64,000 nucleotides of DNA, taken from assembly GCA_951406725.2 (NCBI GenBank), contig OX597818.1, positions 35,898,001-35,962,000 of the forward strand. The letters run 5' to 3'. Position 1 is the stretch's first letter. Every line of letters starts with the position of its first letter. The position numbers and the translations under genes were made by a program. The DNA comes from Octopus vulgaris. Taxonomy: Eukaryota. The notes beneath the pieces are model-generated. The model was not told where the DNA came from. It did not search any database and was given only the letters and a program-made list of their open reading frames with translations. Below, in pieces: positions 1,866-64,000 of the stretch.

Positions 1866-2384
1866 CTACACTTGGAAGATTGCAACAATGGAACAACTAA
1901 ACTACTGGGAAAAACTGAAAGAGCTATCATTCTTCTCCCTTGAGCGAAGACTGGAGGGGTATAAGTGATATATGTATGTAAGACCCTGACGAGACTGGTA
2001 CCAAAATTTGGTATCGGGAGTTATACCAGCTCCCGAACTGTACGTCACTGCACTCTTCCAAAAGTTCCAGCTATCGTGTTTAGAGTGAGGACCATACACT
2101 TCAATAACCTGGAGTTTAAGGACCTACACCTATTTAAGGTCATACCAAAATATCTGGGGGATCTTCAGGGAGTGGGGATAGATGATTTCAAGAAACAACT
2201 TGATCCCCTACTATTCAAGGTCCTGCATGAACCTATATCAAAGCAGAAAACTCACAAGAGGGCAGCACTATCGAAATCGCTCTTTCACCAAAAGCAAAAA
2301 TATATAAGATTGATGATTGAAACGGTGATTACCCTGGCTGTGTTCTAGCATGGCCACAGCATTAAGGCTGAAGTGTATAAAAGA
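1862..2384 (+). mobile_element. 5'-truncated CR1/L2-group LINE 3' end (decayed ORF2 C-terminus plus tail)
   Basis: Translation LNYWEKLKELSFFSLERR...LFKVIPKYLGDLQGVGIDDFKKQLD resembles post-RT C-termini of CR1-group LINEs; frame disrupted; 3' tail hairpin at 2336-2384. Confidence 0.75.
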
Positions 2385-2442
2385 ATATATATGTGTGTGT
2401 GTGTATGTGTGTATGTGTATATATATACAAATACATTTTCAT

Positions 2443-3230
2443 TTATTCTTTTATTTGCTTTGGTCATTTGATTGCGGCCATGCTGGAGTACCCCCTTGAA
2501 GAGTCTTAGTTTAATGAATCGACCCCAGGACTTATTTTTTAAGCCTAATACTTACTTTATCGGTCTCGTTTATCCGAACCGCTAAGTTGCAGTGATGTAA
2601 ACACATTATCACTGCTTGTCAAGCAGTAATGGAGGACAAACACAATCACAAAGGCTCACACACACATAGATATATACATATACATATATACGACGGACCG
2701 AATCCACTCACAAGGCTTTGGTCAGCGCGACGCTGTAGTAGAAGACACTTGCCCAGGGTGTCACAGAGTGGGACTGAACCTGGAATCACGTGGTTTGGAA
2801 GCAAGCTTCTTAACACACAGCCACGACAGACACCGTACTGCTTAGAGAAATGGTGTCGGCAATCGGTCAGTGTGTTTGCTTTTACAAGGCTTTGGTCGGC
2901 TTTGGTCACAAGACTGGTCGGCGCGGAGCTAAAGTAGAAGACACTTGCCCAAGGTGCCACAGAATGGAACTGAACCCGGAACCACATGGTTGGGAAGAAA
3001 GCTTCTTACCACACAGCCACGATTTGTTTTTACAAGGCTTTGGTCAGCTTTGCTCACAAGGCTTTAGTCGGTGCGAGGCTATAGTAGAAGATGCTTGCCC
3101 AAGGTGTCACAGAATGGGACTGAACCCGGAACCACGTGGTTGGGAAGCAAGCTTCTTACCATACAGCTACAACAGACACCGTGCTGCTTATAGAAATCGT
3201 GTCGGCAATAGGTCAGCTTGTTTGCTTTTA
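2443..3230 (-). mobile_element. SINE family A copy plus three tandem head repeats
   Basis: Tail (GGCCATGCTGGAG), internal microsatellite, then three head units separated by a spacer or short linker. Confidence 0.8.
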
Positions 3231-4112
3231 CCTTTCTCGTGACAAACTCACTGAACGAACTGCCCTTCTCTCCATTAGGTAACATTTATCTTTTTCACAT
3301 GTTCGCTTGCAAAGATATTCTCTCACAATGGGCTGACAGCTGCACGAAGCAATATTCTCTTTTCACTTGCCAACAAACTCGTTTTTCTCGTTTGATGTAT
3401 GTATTCACACACATATCAGTATATATATGCATGTCTCTATGTATGCATACCCGTTTGTGTGCGTGTATATATATGTATATGCTAGCATATGCACCTACTC
3501 ACACAAACACATGCGCATAGATATATGATAATAGAATGACTGTCAAACGTGGCTATTTGGTGCAACTGCTGCACAAATTACCATTATACAACGACGCATT
3601 ATGTAAATATAAACAAGCGGGTCTTGCTCTTATTCATAAAGATCGTTATTATTTGTACAAGAGCAATTGTGGCCCTGCCTTATGTATATATAACAAAATG
3701 CTCACAATAAATCAAAAATGTTCGTTTGCGTACAATCTCATATACATACACATGAAAAATAAACAAGCATATAATTCACAAAACAAAGAACATATATTAA
3801 TTTTTTTTTCTAAATCGCACTCGTATAGACATAAACGCAATGCACTTTGCCAGGTTTTAAAGACTTATTTTGAGTGTCTGTGATGTTCATCTGTGTTTCC
3901 AACACACGTGAAAGGAACGGAGAGAGAAAAATTTTCGTGGGACTGGAAACTTAGCCCTAATAACATGTGGCCGATTTTCGTCTGCTCAATAAACTCATCA
4001 ATGCTAATGTGGCCGACGGTTATGTCTATCGGATCGGTGAAACGGCAATGATATGCAGCCGTATAACACACACACACACACACACAGATAGATATATGTA
4101 TACACATATTCT

Positions 4113-4478
4113 CTTTTACTCTTTTACTTTTTTCAGTCGTTTGACTGTGGCCATGCTGGAGCACCGCCTTTTAGTCGAGCAAATCGACCCCAGGACTTAT
4201 TCTTTGTAAGCCTAGTACTTATTCTATCGGTCTCTTTTGCCAACCCGCTATGTTACAGGGACGTAAACACACCAGCATCGGTTGTCAAGCAACGTGTGGG
4301 GGGGGTCAAAGACAGAGACACAAACACACATACACACACACATTTACGACGTGCTTCTCCATTTTCCGCGTACCAAATTCACTCACAGAGCATTGGTCGA
4401 TCCGAGGCTGTAGCAGAAGACACTTGCCCATATAGAGTAGGAACGAACCCAAAACCACGTGGTTGCAAGTCGAGCTTC
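4113..4478 (-). mobile_element. SINE family A copy
   Basis: Matches full-length copies at 16561 and 63018 in reverse complement. Confidence 0.8.
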
Positions 4479-4920
4479 TTAAGTATACAGTCATCATCAT
4501 CATCATCATGACCATCATCACTACCACCAACCAGCATCACCACCATAGCCGTTCTCATTATCGTTACCGTTCTGATTAAGAGGTTAAAATGTGTGATTGA
4601 AAAAAAGTGACCACGATGATGATGACGAAGGGAAGGAGAAGGAGAAGGAGAAGAGAATCAACACGAAGAAGAAGAAGAAGAAGAAGAAGAAGAAGAAGAA
4701 AGAAGAAGAAGAAGAAGAAGAAGAAGAAGACAGCACCATCATCAACGCCACCTGAGTTTGTCTTCTCAGTTAAAACCACGTGATTTTTATTAAACCAAGT
4801 GATGGGTTAAGTCGTCCCCTTAAAAACAAGAACGGTCCCTCTACTAGGCTTCTACACAGTAACCACCTATCAAATTTTCCCCAGAAGTTTTACCCTTTTG
4901 CTACCAACTCGTCCAAGGCC

Positions 4921-5063
4921 GAAGAAGAAGAAGAAGAAGAAGAAGAAGAAGAAGAAGAAGAAGAAGAAGAAGAAGAAGAAGAAGAAGAAGAAGAAGAAGA
5001 AGAAGAAGAAGAAGAAGAAGAAGAAGAAGAAGAAGAAGAAGAAGAAGAAGAAGAAGAAGAAGA
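4921..5063. repeat. Perfect (GAA)n microsatellite
   Basis: About 48 uninterrupted GAA units; flanked by (GAA)n at ~4664 and (TTC)n/(ATT)n at 5266-5765. Confidence 0.97.
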
Positions 5064-5298
5064 AAGGACCACACACACACAAAAATAATAGATGGATTAA
5101 CTGCCGAACAAAAAGTTACGAAAAATTACTTAAATCGATTACTTAAAAAGAAAGAGAGAAAGGAAAGAAAAAAGAAAGAAAGAAAGAAGGAAAGAAAGAG
5201 GATACAAGAGAAGGGACATCCATTTTAATGGTTGCCAGTTAGGCAATATATGAAATATTATTAATATTCTTCTTCTTCTTCTTCTTCTTCTTCTTCTT

Positions 5299-5600
<302 letters not shown>

Positions 5601-5622
5601 ATTATGATTTTTATTATTATTA

Positions 5623-5765
<143 letters not shown>

Positions 5766-6165
5766 AATCGAGAATGTGAATTACAGTTATGTGCAACTAA
5801 GAAAAGACCTCCATTCACCCATCCAACACAAACATAAGAGCTTTAAAGTACAAACCGATCACAAAATAGCACCTAATGGTTTTAAAGCATTCCCATCAAC
5901 CAATTGCTAACTTTAGCATTTTATATACGATTTCCATGTACTATTTAATCATTTTTACAGACCTTAACTCTAGAGAGTGTTTAAGAGGTGGGGGGAAACA
6001 TCTCGTAATAGGTGGTCTGACATCAAACGATTAAATATTCCAAGGAAAGCAGATAGGAAATAGTTTAAGAAGGCTGTGAATGTTACCTACTGCCTCTTCA
6101 ACTTAGAAGAGGTCTTGCTACACCTTCTTATTGGTATGGCTCTACGCATGTGCGAAGGCATGTAT

Positions 6166-6570
<405 letters not shown>

Positions 6571-6594
6571 GTATAAAAGAATAAAAGAATAAAA

Positions 6595-6668
<74 letters not shown>

Positions 6669-6730
6669 ATATTTCGGAATGGTCATTTTGCCAGTTTAGC
6701 CAATAAACGACTTCACATAGAAAATCTTGC

Positions 6731-6846
<116 letters not shown>

Positions 6847-7823
6847 CATACATACATATTATAATAAGGGCCAGTTACATGTTAGTGTCATATGCTAGAA
6901 TAAGACGTCAAATGACTCTAAAACTATATAGTTTGCCCTTATAATTTTTTATTCTAAAAAATTATATACCTTGTATTAATTTATACCTAAAATTCAAATT
7001 TGCGATGAACATACACAAACAAAGTTTGCTTTAGAAGCGTTGAGATGTCTTAGAAAGTTAAAGAAGTGATTTTAAATTCTCAAACACAGGATAATGCTAA
7101 TAATATAGCCTGAACAGGATAAGCTACCCCTATTTTGCAGAAAAAAAGTGTCGGAAAAAGGTTTTACATGGTAACTACCTGATAAAATCCTATATAGACT
7201 TTATCCTTGATTGTAAAAATATATATATATATGGATGGATGTGCGTACGTACGTGTGTGCGTGTGTGCGTGTGTGCGTGTGTGCGTGTGTGTATGTGCAT
7301 GGGTGCACGTGCGCCTGTGTGAGCGCGCGCACCTGTGTATGTCTTTGCATTTGTGTCTGCCCCCACTTCACCGCTTGACAGCTACTGCTGGTTTGCTTAC
7401 GTCCACAAAGAATAGCAGTTTGTTAAAAGATACCGACGGAATAAGTCCTGGCGTCGATTCATTCGACTAAATGCTTCAAAGCGGCACACCAGCATGGACT
7501 CTGTCCAATGACAGAAAGAGTTAAAATTCTGAAAAGATATCGACTATCACAGATTTTTTTTTTAATTCCTTCAAAAACTGGGATTACAATTCTGTCCAGT
7601 TAACGGCATCACTTGGTTCCTCTGTTCTTTTTATAAACATGAGTCCACAATAAGACCAGCTCCACATCTGTCGATAAATTTCCTCACTTTCTCCCATCGT
7701 TTGAGGGGCCCTTTAAAGGGTCATCAGTGCTGACCTTTCTTCTTTGATTATCACCTAAAAATAAAAAAAGGAATAAAAATGTAAACTAAGGCAGTAGCAA
7801 ACGATAATATTTTTAAAACAAAA

Positions 7824-8506: not shown

Positions 8507-9742
8507 TGATTCTTTTCTACTCTAGGCACAAGGTCCGAAATTTTGGGGGAGGGAGGGCAGTCGATTAGATCGACCCCAGTACGCAACTGGTACTTAATTC
8601 ATTGACCCCGAAAGGATGAAAGGCAAAGTCGACCACGGCGGAATTTGAACTCAGAACGTAAAGACAGACGAAATACCACTAAACATTTCGCCTAGTGTGC
8701 TAACGTTTCTGCCACCTCGCCGCCTTTAAAAATATTCTTTTCTACTCAAAACACAAGGCCCGAATTTTAGGGGGAGGGAGTCGGTGGATTAGATCTATCC
8801 AGTACGCAACTGGTACTTAATTTATCGATTCCGACAAAAGGTGGTGCTCCAGCATGGCCACAGTCAAATTACTGAAACAAGTAAAAGAGTAAAAGAGAGT
8901 AGATCAGTAATTATGAAAAAACAAAAGAAAAGAAACATCCTTTGCATGCAATAAATTTCGTCCTGCGTGCTAACGATTCTTTTCTACTCTAGGCACAAGG
9001 CTCGAAATTTTGGGGGAAGGGGCAAGTCGATTAGATCGACCCCAGTACGTAACTGGTACATAATTTTTCGACTCCGAAAAGATGAAAGGCAAAGTTGACC
9101 TCGGTGGAATTTGAACTCACAAGGTAAAGATAGACGAAACACCTATTTCTTTACTACCCACAAGGGGCTAAACACAGGGAGGACAAACAAGGACAGACAG
9201 ACAGATTAAGTTGATTACATTGACCCAGTGCGTAACTGGTACTTATTTAATCGACCCCGAAAAGATAAAAGGCAAAGTCGACCTCAGTGGAATTTGAACT
9301 CACAAGGTAAAGATAGACGAAATACCTATTTCTTTACTACCCACAAGGGGTTAAACATAGAGGGGATAAACAAGGACAGACAAAGGGGTTACGTCGATTA
9401 CATCGACCCCAGTGCATAACTGGTACATAATTTATCGATCCCGAAAAGATGAAAAGCAAAGTCGGCCTCGGTGGAATTTGAACTCACAACGTAAAGACCG
9501 ACGAAATACCCACTTCTTTACTACCCACAAGGGGCTAAACACAGAGAGGACAAACAAGGACAGACAAAGGGATTAAGTCGATTATATCGACCTCAGTGCG
9601 TAACTGGTACTTATTTAATCGACCCAGAAAGGATGAAAGGCAAAGTCGACCTCGGTGGAATTTGAACTCAGAACGTAACGGCAGACGAAATACCGCTAAG
9701 CATTTCGCCCGGCGTGCCAACGTTTCTGCCAGTGCGTTGCCT
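8507..9742 (-). mobile_element. Cluster of SINE family B: monomer 8507-8725, fragment, 4-unit array 8977-9742
   Basis: Repeated Meta core; the array terminates in tail B (CCTTGTGCCTAGAGTAGAAAAGAAT). Confidence 0.85.
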
Positions 9743-11099: not shown

Positions 11100-11210
11100 A
11101 TCCAAACATAAAAACACAAAGAAAAACACAACGCGAGGACGTGGAACAAGTATAGTGTTGTTGGACGCTCAGGAAAGGAAAGAAAGAAGGAGGATTTTAC
11201 GTTTCGAGCG
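11095..11210 (-). mobile_element. Penelope-like terminus next to (TA)n, truncated by a SINE array
   Basis: Ends in ACGTTTCGAGC (minus GCTCGAAACGT, hammerhead 3' half), as in the 26742-26870 element. Confidence 0.45.
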
Positions 11211-11900
11211 GGGTCGATGTAATCGACTTAATCCCTTTGTGTGTCCTTGTTTGTCCCCTCTATACTTAGCCCCTTGTAGGCAATAAAGAAATAAGAAACG
11301 TTAGCACGCCGGGGGAAATGCTTAGTGGTATTTCGTTTGCAGTTACGTTCGATGATCAAATTCCGCCGAGGTCGACTTTGCCTTTCATCCTTTCGGGGTC
11401 AATTAAATAAGTGCCAGTTACGCACTGAGGTCGATATAATCGACTTAATCCGTTTGTCTGTTCTTGTTTGTCCTCTCTGGGTTTAGCCTCTTGTGGGTAG
11501 TAAAGAAATAAGTAGTTCGTCTGTCTTTACGTTCTGAGTTCAAATTCCGCCGAGGTCGACTTTGCATTTCATCCTTTCGGGGTCGATAAATTAAGTACCA
11601 GTTACGCGTACCGCGGTCGATCCAATCGACTTAATCCCTTTGTGTGTCCTTGTTTGTCCCCTCTGTGTTTAGCCCCTTGTGGTCAATAAAGAAATAAGAA
11701 ACGTTAGCACGCCGGGCGAAATGCTTAGTGGTATTTCGTCTGTAGTTACGTTCGGAGATCAAATTCCGCCCAGGTCGACTTTGCCTTTCGTCCTTTCGGG
11801 GTCTATAAATTAAGCACCAGTTGCGTACCGCGGTCGATCTAATCGACTGACCCCCTCCCTCCAAATATCAGGCCTTGTTCATAGAGTAGAAAAGAATATT
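11208..11900 (+). mobile_element. SINE family B tandem array (partial unit plus 3 units, terminal tail B)
   Basis: Alternating long and short junctions; ends AGAGTAGAAAAGAAT. Confidence 0.85.
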
Positions 11901-12397: not shown

Positions 12398-12950
12398 TAC
12401 CCCAGTGTGTAACTGGTACTTAATTTATCGACCCCGAAAGGACGAAAGGCAAAGTCTACCTCGGCGGAATTTGAGCTCAGAACGTAACGGCAGACGAAAT
12501 ACTCATTTCTTTACTACCCACAAGGGGCTAAACACAGAGGGGACAAACAAGGACAGGCAAACGGATTAAATCGATTATATCGACCCCAGTGCGTAACTGG
12601 TACCTATTTAATCCACCCCGAAAGGATGAAAGGCAAAGTCGACCTCGGTGGAATTTGAACTCAGAACGTAACGGCAGGCGAAATACGGCTACACATTTCG
12701 CCCGGCGTGCTAACGTTTCTTATTTCTTTATTGCCCACAAAGCGCTAAACATAGAGGAGTCAAACAAGGACAGACAAACGGATTAAGTCGATTACATCGA
12801 CTCCAGTGTGTAACTGGTATTTAATTTATCGACCCCGAAAGGATGAAAGTCAAAGTCGACCTCGGCGGAATTTGAACTCAGAACGTAACGGCAGACGAAA
12901 TACTGCTAAGCATTCCCCCGATGTGCTAAAGTTTCTGTCAGCTCGCTGCC
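12398..12950 (-). mobile_element. SINE family B tandem array (3 units)
   Basis: Head near 12950 and two internal tail-A junctions. Confidence 0.85.
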
Positions 12951-45795: not shown

Positions 45796-46560
45796 GAATT
45801 GTTGCTATTCATTTCGTTGATGCCGATTTTGTTGTTGCTTCTGTTATTATAGGGTCAGAAAGTAGTTTAATTGGTTGCTTAGTCTAGCTAGTTTCTCATT
45901 CCATTAATTAGATACGTGATCGATAGGTTTGTTGTATAATTCATTATTGGAGAGTGTTGTTGATCAATAAATTGCTTTCTTTTTGTTTTTGTTTTTTTGT
46001 TTATTTATTTTTCGATGTTTTCTTTTCCCCTCTTATCTGCTAACACTAATTCATTGGTCGATTGTTTAGTTTAGTTTTCAACATATTTCTCCAATGCAAC
46101 GTATATTCTTTTTCTTTTTTTTACTTATAAATTTACTTATTTATTTATTTATTTATTTATCAATTAGTTATTCGACTAATTAGATATTTTGATATCGATT
46201 AGTTGTGTAGTAATCATTAATTTGAAACGTTATATATGCGCATATGCTTATGTATGCATCTACATTATGTATGTGTGCGTGCGTACGTACGTGTATTATG
46301 TGTATTATTTGTGTCTATGGGTAAAATGTATTATAAGTGAAGACAGAGACTTCGAAGCTTTGCCTAGCACAGCTTTTCAAACTTTGAAGAACAGTACATA
46401 TTTCTCATATACAGACAGACTGCTGTGAAGGGTGGAACACGATCACCATTCGGGAATGAAAATGAGGAACCAACAGAATGGAATTTTGTATAATATATGG
46501 ATAATTGTGATAGTAAAACAATGAAGTACCGTAATATATAGAAGCTAAAGCTGAGTAAAA

Positions 46561-46592
<32 letters not shown>

Positions 46593-46665
46593 GTGTGTGT
46601 TTGTGTGTGTTTGTGTGTGTGTGTGAGTGTGTGTGTGTTTAATGAAGAAGTTTAATACGCATGTA

Positions 46666-47229
46666 TTGGGTTGTCCGGAAAGTTCGTGACAGTTTTTAAA
46701 AGAAAGAAAAAAGGTCAATAAATATTTACCATTACATTTTTGATCAACCAAATATGAACCATTTTGTTGCACAATGCGTCTCCATCTTTCCTTTAACTTG
46801 AAAATACCCTCTTCCCAGAATGGAGGTGGTTTCATGGCAAATAATTCATCAAGGTATCTTTTTACGTCATACAAGGAATTGAAATTTTTACCATTAAGAC
46901 TATTCTGCAGAGAACTGAATAAGTGGAAATCCAAAGGAGCAATATCTGGTGAATATGGAGGGTGGGGTAACACATCCCAGCTAAGCTGCAGCAATTTTTG
47001 TCTGGTTCTCAAACCATCAAGCGCCGAAATTAAACTTTCTTATCTTCCATTTTAAAGGGATACAAAATTAACACAGGTTATAGGAACATAAACCTTCCAC
47101 GAAAAGATAGCGTAAACTGCGCTCTAAATTGAGGTGTAGTCAAATCCTATTTTATGGACTCAACCATGTTCTAAAATAAGTCGAAAGGTAAGCTACTATA
47201 AATCGGGACGAACTTACCGGACAACCCAA
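46666..47229 (-). mobile_element. Internally deleted mariner transposon
   Basis: TIRs TTGGGTTGTCCGG.AAGTTCGT at both ends, TA TSD, transposase C-terminus WDVLPHPPYSPDIAPLDFHLF. Confidence 0.92.
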
Positions 47230-60166: not shown

Positions 60167-61231
60167 TTAAGGGATTCGTAACTATAGCTATAACATTCAT
60201 ACTACAGATTCAAAGCATGTGCGGTTGGGTGTTAGTCAGAGAAAATTCGCATCAATGAAAGATTCGTGAATTCATAAGCATGACATCTTTCCGGAAACGG
60301 ACGCGAAAATGAGGTAGTGGTCGAAGGATGAAGTTGTTAATATAAAAAATCTTGCGTTATACAAATCTCATAATCAATACTTTCCTTTCCCTGTGTGTGT
60401 TCAACACTTTAATATTTTTTTGTAAACTTTTACGAAAGATAAAAATCTTAACGCAAACACACACACACACCTACACAGACACACACATGCATGTATGTAC
60501 TTGTGTGTATACATATGTATATGTACACATACGCCTGTATCTACATATATATATATATGTATGTGCGTGTGTATCTATGTGTGTCTGCCAAATAAGTGTA
60601 CAGTTTTATAATTAGATAAAAAAAATAGTAAAGAATAGAAAGAAAGTAGAAGGAAGAAAAAACAAAAATGTTGATACGGAATCAACTGTAAATGTAAATC
60701 ACGAATTGGTCTGACTAATTAAAAGTTCCATTCCAAAATTCAAGTGAGTAACTCCCAACTAACACAGACATGACGTGTTTGGGTGAAAGATATGTCCCAA
60801 CGACGCCCACCGCTTTCTAAACCATTGTAAAGCAAAACGTATTAAACTTATCAAATTATTTAAAACTAGAAACGGGTGTTGAGACTCAAGTGTTTGTTGT
60901 TTCTCGTGTTGAAGAAATAAATAATCCAACCTTCACAACAAGAGAATCCTTTGAAGACATTATCTAACTTCCATAACAGGAGAAGCCATAAATGCTGACA
61001 TCCGGAATATATCGTAATTTTTGCAACAATATCCATTAAATTTAGGTTTCAATATAAATAAGGGCTAATTTAGAAACGGTTACTCTTTAACATATTCATC
61101 TTAAAGGACAGTGGTGTTTAAAGTACCAAACGATCCCGTCACATGGTTTTAAGGAGACTTCAAAACTTAAGCCATATTTTTATCACTTTGAAAGCCCAAG
61201 AGCAGCGAATAGCATCTCGAAACTAAGTTTC

Positions 61232-61348
61232 TCTTACGGTCATATCACTTTGAAAGCACCGGTTCTCATCCGATTACCGAAGTTAAGCGACGTCGAGCCT
61301 AGTTAGTACTTAGATGAGTGACCGCTTGGGAAACCTAGGTGCTGTAAG
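61232..61348 (+). pseudogene. Near full-length 5S rRNA-derived sequence (retrocopy)
   Basis: CTTACGGTCATATCAC..GAAAGCACCGGTTCTC..CCGAAGTTAAGC..GTTAGTACTT..GTGACCGCTTGGGAAACCTAGGTGCTGTAAG; terminal stem CTTAC/GTAAG; box C altered; no oligo-T terminator. Confidence 0.92.
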
Positions 61349-61433
61349 GGGAATCACTCGGCTCATCCGTCGATGAAGAGCGCGGCTATCCGCGTGAACT
61401 GATGCAAATTGCAGGACTCGGTGAACATCGACA
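61349..61433 (+). pseudogene. 5.8S rRNA-derived fragment (5' portion) fused directly to the 5S copy
   Basis: ATCACTCGGCTC..CGTCGATGAAGAGCGC..GCGTGAA..AATTGCAGGAC..TGAACATCGAC are conserved eukaryotic 5.8S blocks, in the correct order. Confidence 0.88.
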
Positions 61434-61451
61434 AAAAAAAGGAGAAAAAAA

Positions 61452-61672
61452 GGCGGCGAGCTGGCAGAAACGTTAGCACGCCGGGCGAAATGCTTAGCGG
61501 CATTTCGTCTGCTGTTACGTTCTGAGTTCAAATTCCGCCGAGGTCGACTTTGCCTATCATCCTTTCGGGGTCGATAAATTAAGTACCAGTTACGCACTGG
61601 GGTCACTGTAATCGACTAAATCCCTTTGTTTGTCCTCTCTATGTTTAGCCCCTTGTGAGTAATAAAGAAATA
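61452..61672 (+). mobile_element. SINE family B monomer forming the 3' part of the rRNA chimera
   Basis: Intact head, Meta core, tail A. Confidence 0.9.
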
Positions 61673-62160
61673 AGAAACTTAGTTTCTCTGTTATGTGGTA
61701 ACCTATCAGAAAAAGTTGCATTACAATCTGTTAATTGGATGGTTTGTCTACGGACAAATGTTAATGTTGGAAAAATTACAACACTTTTGATTAATTTTCA
61801 AATTCTGAATCTCTCCACACGTGCAATTATCCTGAAATCGTTTTCATTTAATCAAGCACAATTGCACCCTTACAAGGAGATGAAGGAGTTATTTTGGTTT
61901 TTCGGGCATTTAACTAAAAAGAAATCTAAGAATTGTTTACAATGATTAATGATGAACATCAGTCTGTAATAACAAAATTTTGGTAAAACAAGTCTAGCCC
62001 AAGCAATAAAGGTATTAAAGATATTTAAGAAGATGTTCAACATCCCTATGTCACTGAGTTTGGGGAAAAAACGTGTTCCAATGTGCTTAAGAGAGATCAT
62101 AAAATGGAGGGTGAAACCTATATGACCATTCAGTCTTTCCTCTAAACACAATGTATTTAT

Positions 62161-63427: not shown

Positions 63428-63620
63428 AATATAAATTCCACTGGATTTCTTTTTAAGGTGTTGAATGTCTATGAGGGTCCAGTAGAGTGAGAGAGGAGTC
63501 AAAGGGGACCATAGATGGATTTTTTTTAAAAAGGTGGGGGCTGGGAGCTACTCGCCTGGAAGCTCACCTGTTATGGCATTGGTGGTTGTGATAATGGAAA
63601 TGGTTTTGGTGGTGGTGGTA

Positions 63621-64000
63621 GAAGAAGAAGAAGAAGAAGAAGAAGAAGAAGAAGAAGAAGAAGAAGAAGAAGAAGAAGAAGAAGAAGAAAAAGAAGAAGA
63701 AGAAAAAGAAGGGAGGAAGAAGAAGAAAAGAAGGGAGGAAGAAGAAGAAAAGAAGGGAGAAAGAAGAAGAAAAGAAGGGAGGAAGAAGAAGAACAAGAAG
63801 AAGAAGGAGAAAATATAAAGAACACGAAGAAGAAAAAGAAGAAGAAGATTGGGAGAAAGAAGAAAAAGAAGAAAATAAAAAGAACACGAAGAAGAACAAG
63901 AAGGGGAGGAAGGTGAAGGAGAAGGTGATGAAGAAGATGAGGAAGAAGATGAGGAAGAAGAAGAATGGGAGAAAGAAGAAAAAGAAGAAAATAAAAAGAA
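63621..64000. repeat. (GAA)n and degenerate GA-rich repeat
   Basis: Direct inspection; TGGGAGAAAGAAGAAAAAGAAGAAAATAAAAAGAA is duplicated. Confidence 0.92.

Follow-up and report, generated by a model that had tools for sequence, protein, structure and literature searches.

We report a composite retro-insertion in Octopus vulgaris in which a 5S rRNA copy, a piece of 5.8S rRNA, an A-rich linker and a full-length SINE, all in one orientation and directly joined, lie within a single target-site duplication. The composite appears to be a one-off insertion rather than a new repeat family, and can be read as the three-part case of a two-part habit, the joining of small RNAs to SINEs, that is found across the genome. 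We consider it probable that it is a single dead retro-insertion, made when the reverse transcriptase of an L1/Tx1-like LINE copied a SINE RNA and jumped twice to other RNAs.

Structure and divergence of the composite

The locus lies in a 64-kb window (the whole stretch of DNA analysed, C5:35898001-35962000 of a 2.8-Gb assembly). At 61219-61689 the sequence matches the description given in a first-pass annotation of the window, and the observation is confirmed. Its parts are as follows.

61219..61234, + strand: left copy of the target-site duplication (TSD), 16 bp, 15/16 identical to the right copy (sequence; end-anchored test)
61233..61348, + strand: 5S rRNA copy, positions 2-117 (Rfam RF00001, 100.9 bits)
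61349..61433, + strand: 5.8S rRNA piece, positions 12-96 (Rfam RF00002, E 5.7e-8; rDNA alignment)
61434..61451, + strand: A-rich linker, 18 nt (15 A, 3 G) (sequence)
61452..61673, + strand: full-length "family B" SINE (sequence; many copies in the window)
61645..61672, + strand: SINE 3' tail in common with the 3' end of a two-ORF LINE that we label L1/Tx1-like, for example the copy L225 on C1 (zf-RVT loci, alignment, domains)
61674..61689, + strand: right TSD copy (sequence; 15/16 match; end-anchored test)

Rfam scans found both rRNAs at the locus, which agrees with the earlier claim of a near-complete 5S fused without spacer to 5.8S. The 5S match spans 61232-61350 (100.9 bits) and is the sole family at gathering score in the 64-kb window. 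The 5.8S match overlaps 61338-61495 (38.2 bits, E 5.7e-8) and stays under the gathering score of 42 because 5.8S is present only in part. This second piece had been described as the 5' portion of 5.8S: the 5.8S piece is real, and 61349-61433 is 95% identical to the 5.8S of the genome's own rDNA unit, but it covers positions 12-96, without the first 11 nt and the final ~60 nt of a reference of about 157-159 nt, and is better described as an internal-to-5' piece than as the 5' end itself. It carries no ITS sequence, and the 5S part has no upstream gene flank, no 3' trailer and no terminator. The parts look like copies of cellular RNAs, with boundaries that appear to follow the processed RNA rather than the gene.

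The rDNA array that served as the 5.8S reference is on C20. Clustered 5S copies with T-rich 3' flanks are found on C4, widely spaced, whereas at a locus on C25 (L029) tandem 5S units are only 12 nt apart. A 5S gene linked to 45S rDNA was considered as a source and rejected: 19.8 kb over one array unit contain 18S, 5.8S and 28S and no 5S.

The A-rich linker and the full family-B SINE stand as first described. The TSD copies sit exactly at both ends of the composite and differ at 1/16 positions, the final 2 nt (CT) of the left copy doubling as 5S positions 2-3. The claim that a single duplication surrounds all parts is borne out; mismatched locus pairs attain its score in only 3/235 cases. The annotation had cautioned that the first 5 nt of the right repeat also match the usual SINE array junction. 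This does not undo the repeat: 10/11 of the remaining nucleotides match, and the repeat still stands because array junctions are themselves target sites, as at two other chimeras described below (L108, L119). Over their first 13 nt (61219-61231 and 61674-61686) the two repeats are exact mutual reverse complements, so that the target is near-palindromic. TTTT is absent from 61235-61673, as had been noted, and first occurs at 61785; Pol III read-through of the composite would be possible.

All parts of the composite are ~5% diverged from their references, and their ages appear to agree. The 5S part differs from a clustered 5S gene (L006) at 7/116 positions, the 5.8S piece from the rDNA array copy at 4/85 (2 of them CpG transitions), the SINE from the majority of 54 distinct copies at 11/221 and the TSD copies from each other at 1/16. 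Some of the 5S differences are variants found in other 5S copies. Changes at 5S positions 58, 61 and 86 affect box A twice and box C once, and we take position 86 to lie within the TFIIIA-binding core. At 5.8S position 15, the same non-CpG G-to-A change is present at the focal locus and in three other, independent 5.8S retrocopies (L050, L051, L081); it may go back to a variant present in a minority of rDNA units, or to an error that copying makes repeatedly, possibly where the base is modified. We also observed that 15 nt at 61181-61195 are identical to the focal 5S at 61243-61257, 62 nt downstream, within the single-copy flank. None of 868 background windows scores as high; chance, an older 5S-like remnant or local templating may account for the match.

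Small-RNA/SINE joins and a probable partner LINE

Among 49 distinct 5.8S loci, 16 reach into ITS (array units and DNA-level copies) and were set aside, which left 33 with mature boundaries. A SINE head from one of three families, or a short LINE-type tail, lies within ~30 nt after the 5.8S in 26 of these 33, the focal locus included, and no recognised head or tail follows the other 7. In the 32 other mature-bounded copies the start lies at positions 1-20 and the end no further than ~160, the limits of the processed RNA. In 19/32 of these dispersed copies the 5' start falls at positions 5-8 rather than at position 1 of the Rfam model, a cluster that could correspond to the true mature 5' end or to a point where copying commonly stops. 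A strict pattern for 5S returned 263 3' ends; in at least 80 of the 100 listed, judged by eye, a SINE head or tail comes next. The same holds for 17/30 U6 loci, from 48 listed. As a control, a SINE head or tail was found at 23/1000 random window positions. Joins of 5S to the focal SINE family (SINE-B) number 22, mostly with different linkers. Among the 5S ends listed, most chimeras retain the 3' trailer that is missing from the focal 5S. Rfam detected no second RNA family in 20 5S-SINE loci and 20 5.8S loci, and the dispersed 5S, 5.8S and U6 loci examined contained neither 18S nor 28S pieces. Since rRNA-SINE joins are common in this genome, the focal locus is less isolated than was first assumed. 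Many 5S, 5.8S and U6 copies (L002, L003, L008, L072, L129 and others) are followed only by a ~50-nt LINE-type tail that nearly always has the same start base, a pattern that suggests either a distinct short RNA or a jump at a fixed point.

Duplications were scored with an end-anchored test, which replaced a 900-nt version that had a high microsatellite background. Of the 55 loci entered, 40 have a complete SINE end and were tested, and the 15 without one were left out. A duplication with a score of at least 10 surrounds RNA plus SINE in 15/40 loci, compared with 4/235 mismatched pairs, and a duplication around the SINE alone was seen in 0/40. At the focal locus the composite scores 12 and the SINE alone 4. 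Because the duplications enclose both parts and never the SINE alone, we conclude that RNA and SINE arrived together, rather than the SINE landing behind an existing RNA copy. In the other 25/40 no duplication reached this score, perhaps because the insertions are old, because their duplications are short or because further elements later inserted into them.

Linkers vary from locus to locus. Twenty-two of the 26 5.8S chimeras have a linker of 3-30 nt, and when a 5.8S copy ending before position 140 is counted as cut, linkers of at least 60% A follow 7/10 cut copies vs 1/12 full-length copies (Fisher P 0.006, Mann-Whitney P 0.001, with thresholds chosen post hoc). Because A-rich linkers go with cut 5.8S, adenylated decay intermediates suggest themselves as templates. 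At the focal locus, the template would have been a cut, adenylated 5.8S, the 18-nt linker likely being its oligo(A) tail, possibly plus untemplated bases added by the enzyme. In yeast, according to the available text of PMC11417381, A tails are longer on shortened pre-rRNA degradation intermediates than on intact ends. The text available for PMC5322556 reports that the tailless 5S and U2 retropseudogenes of human lack such an A signal, and to that extent the octopus 5.8S chimeras differ from that class.

The SINE-B tail points to a partner LINE. In a zf-RVT search, 18/30 loci examined end in the SINE-B tail. Their 3' ends match SINE positions ~179-222 at 87-96%, although the shared stretch is only about 28-43 nt, and this common tail would be the sequence recognised by the LINE protein. 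An RTE or CR1-type partner gained no support, as 0/30 loci end in the SINE-B tail among the best 30 of 150 RVT_1 loci listed. A full copy of the LINE was located on C1.

L225 (C1), 2122-7261: full LINE copy with two ORFs (domain scans)

Its ORF1 (446 aa) carries a zf-CCHC domain (zinc knuckle), and its ORF2 (1128 aa) carries endonuclease, reverse transcriptase and zf-RVT domains. The solved structure closest to ORF2 is human L1 ORF2p (E 4e-66), with R2 proteins at 4e-26. The L1/Tx1-like label that we use for this LINE follows from the domain layout. Three young two-ORF copies (L225, L226 and L227) are 97-99% alike. A second ORF1-like frame begins right after the 3' end of L225, and zf-RVT matches recur at ~5.4-kb spacing on C2, suggesting that these LINEs form tandem stacks.

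We take the SINE head to be tRNA-derived; it folds as a long hairpin (z -2.9), and ARAGORN reported no tRNA in the window. Head-to-tail SINE arrays are present at 1026-1754, 9025-9732, 11210-11856 and 12399-12950 of the window, and at L097, L108 and L119. Later array units restart at SINE positions 48 or 15, and the duplications of the chimeras L108 and L119 are made of SINE positions 48-60 or 48-64, indicating insertion into older SINE copies. As units restart at 48 or 15 and the duplications of these two chimeras start at 48, SINE array junctions appear to be preferred targets. The GAAAC start of the focal repeat fits this preference.

Possible routes to the composite

We infer the following series of events, from the enzyme to the order of the jumps. 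The LINE protein would bind the SINE RNA through the shared 3' tail and prime synthesis at a nicked target. On reaching the 5' end of the SINE, at its first base, it would jump to a 5.8S RNA that had been cut at position 96 and carried an A-rich 3' end; this RNA was probably an intermediate of decay that had been adenylated. Near 5.8S position 12 the enzyme would jump again, to the 3' end of a 5S RNA. The cDNA would then join the target through the 2-nt overlap at 5S positions 2-3, and the 16-bp duplication would be filled in. At the second joint, the 5S sequence CTGTAAG and 5.8S positions 5-11 (CTGGACG) are alike at 5/7 positions, and the product carries the 5S letters in this 7-nt overlap, not those of 5.8S. 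This is at odds with a jump by simple annealing at 5.8S position 5, and no more than 1 nt of overlap is certain.

A bolder form of this reading, which we regard as rather doubtful, is that such chimeras are a DNA fossil record of ribosome breakdown. The L1/Tx1-like reverse transcriptase would cap SINE insertions with cut, A-tailed 5.8S and, at the focal locus, would have copied first 5.8S and next 5S from a single large subunit in the course of its breakdown. Rough arithmetic from ~8 full SINE-B copies per 64 kb and 22 strict 5S-SINE-B joins puts a 5S jump near 1 in 10,000 insertions. At this rate 1 double case among ~30 5.8S chimeras exceeds the expectation for independent jumps, an excess that consists of one event and that is to be read knowing that other RNA pairs would have drawn notice too.

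Genomic sequence cannot separate jumping from RNA ligation before copying. We consider it unlikely that RtcB-type ligation between a cyclic phosphate and a 5'-OH had made one joint or both before copying and that the joined RNA was then retrotransposed whole; such ligation is shown for human U6/L1 in the available text of PMC6789731. The 5S/5.8S joint has features that would suit it: there is no spacer, the 5S 3' end and the 5.8S 5' end are both shortened, as nuclease-cut ends could be, the overlap holds 5S letters, and both RNAs belong to the large subunit. Linkers that differ by locus speak against ligation, as do SINEs joined at their first base in most chimeras, with 41 complete copies that begin at position 1. 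The primary 5' end of a Pol III transcript is a triphosphate, and an oligo(A) tail ends in a 3'-OH, which is no RtcB substrate. The available text of PMC6789731 states that a triphosphate 5' end sharply reduces ligation. These counterarguments bear on the 5.8S/SINE joint; ligation is possible for the 5S/5.8S joint and fits the other poorly.

Stacking of separate events, with the rRNA copy first and the SINE inserted behind it, or a DNA-repair patchwork, seems improbable. These SINEs do insert at preferred sites in older SINEs, and the 15-nt 5S match lies just upstream of the composite. The texts available describe elements of the Tx1 clade with U2 and further multicopy RNA genes as targets (PMC4494074) and a LINE, Mutsu, that inserts into 5S genes (PMC10946416). 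Yet neither the focal locus nor any of the 40 loci tested has a duplication around the SINE alone, the right repeat copies the DNA that precedes the 5S, all parts are equally diverged, and the rDNA unit has no 5S.

The first-pass annotation had left the choice between a multi-template retro-chimera, which our results support, and a new composite 5S/5.8S SINE family, for which they offer no support. That the focal locus is a member or master of such a family, transcribed from the internal promoter of its 5S part, is very improbable. It would be in keeping with an intact 5S head and a LINE-type tail with no TTTT between them, and with some 5S-SINE joins that occur at more than one site with an identical linker (L109/L121, whose duplications differ, L113/L119 and L115/L122, or 3 pairs among the 22 joins). 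However, the 5S/5.8S junction was matched once in 2.8 Gb, at the focal locus, both by a strict pattern and by a loose pattern allowing a 25-55 nt gap. Only the focal copy among 42 matches to the 5.8S 5' motif has 5S upstream. A pattern joining 5.8S near position 96 to the SINE head gave 5 matches genome-wide, none with the focal linker apart from the focal locus: besides that locus, they comprise two other 5.8S-SINE joins with different linkers (L035/L194 and L192) and two sequences that are not 5.8S. These junction searches used exact patterns, which a much-decayed sister copy could escape, and the single-copy result refers to junction and motif searches of this assembly. The left flank (60880-61234) is single-copy in the genome, and no paralogous empty site was found in this genome. 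Box A and box C are altered, and ~5% decay has accumulated with no daughters found. The composite is likely without function. Apart from the focal locus, L109 and L121 share 5S variants as well as a linker, but their duplications differ; they form a candidate small re-transposed 5S-SINE subfamily, and on this basis 5S-SINE composites may at times be re-copied.

The idea that an artefact of the assembly or the library has joined rRNA reads with a repeat can be given hardly any weight, as the rRNA parts differ by 5-6% from the genes, including CpG transitions, a matching duplication lies at both ends beside a unique left flank, and dozens of independent loci share the design.

Relation to known chimeras

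Double jumps and small-RNA/SINE chimeras have been published; what appears to be new is the use of 5.8S and of two rRNAs. The comparisons that follow refer to the available portions of the cited papers. One tripartite WEIRD/Mg-SINE/MGL element is described beside 33 bipartite ones in Magnaporthe grisea, and two B2/U6/L1 elements in mouse (PMC2104539). Like the octopus composite, these elements contain three RNA copies in one orientation within one duplication of 14-16 bp, and are rare beside two-part chimeras. Unlike them, the octopus composite has a SINE and not a LINE as its 3' part, and its added parts are both rRNA, one of them a Pol I product. Chimeras that place a small RNA 5' of a SINE inside a duplication, as in octopus, include U6-Mon-1 (platypus) and U6-AnolisSINE2 (lizard), published along with U6-L1/L2/RTE chimeras, and where the LINEs of a genome are stringent, this is the main form in which small RNAs are copied (PMC4476161). 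Whereas that work concerns snRNAs, in octopus 5S, 5.8S and U6 are all captured, at tens to hundreds of loci. Human L1 chimeras with 5S, 28S, tRNA, 7SK, Y and 7SL have been catalogued, and there too rRNA pieces are co-inserted with a retroelement (PMC13174262). The human 28S pieces are mostly sense; the human 5S parts are mostly antisense and truncated, in contrast to the sense, whole 5S parts of octopus. Template switching has also been proposed as the origin of SINE3 (5S-headed), SINE28 and SINEU (PMC5786205; PMC4494074; PMC10946416; PMC5729268), which likewise carry an RNA-gene head on a LINE-derived tail, SINEU being tied to Tx1 LINEs. These SINEs are multi-copy units, whereas the focal junction is single-copy.

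In the article listings, abstracts and main texts covered, neither a chimera of this kind with 5.8S nor a fusion of 5S to 5.8S came to light. In a review among the papers on these SINE families, the available text of the table of rDNA in transposable elements shows 5S, 28S and IGS, and not 5.8S. The main texts of PMC13174262, PMC4476161, PMC4494074, PMC5729268 and PMC13282606 do not contain the term "5.8S". It occurs once, as a query sequence, in PMC5322556, the supplements of which may list 5.8S retrocopies, and only in rDNA descriptions or references in PMC10946416 and PMC2718515. A table in the available part of PMC13282606 includes "5S" and "U" SINE families for Octopus vulgaris, and the library behind it may hold composites of the focal kind.

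The focal locus is a dead one-off, the extreme case of a measurable habit, and the genome-wide pattern is worth more. As SINE insertions carry most of the dispersed 5S, 5.8S and U6 copies examined, head capture becomes countable in hundreds of independent events. Such capture is the proposed founding step of SINE3, SINE28 and SINEU, and in this genome its failures, such as the focal locus, are visible together with apparent small successes, the recurring 5S-SINE joins. With the 5.8S set, the captured RNAs come to include a Pol I product, and the tie between cut ends and A-rich linkers means that the choice between jump and ligation can be put to the test with a specific LINE protein and specific RNAs. 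It also carries a warning, in that dispersed 5S and 5.8S matches in such genomes are mostly not genes.

Two further features of the window lie apart from the composite. An open frame at 46545-47039 on the - strand seems similar to the C-terminal portion of a mariner-type transposase, and a long degenerate GAA-rich repeat occupies 63620-64000 and continues past the window end.
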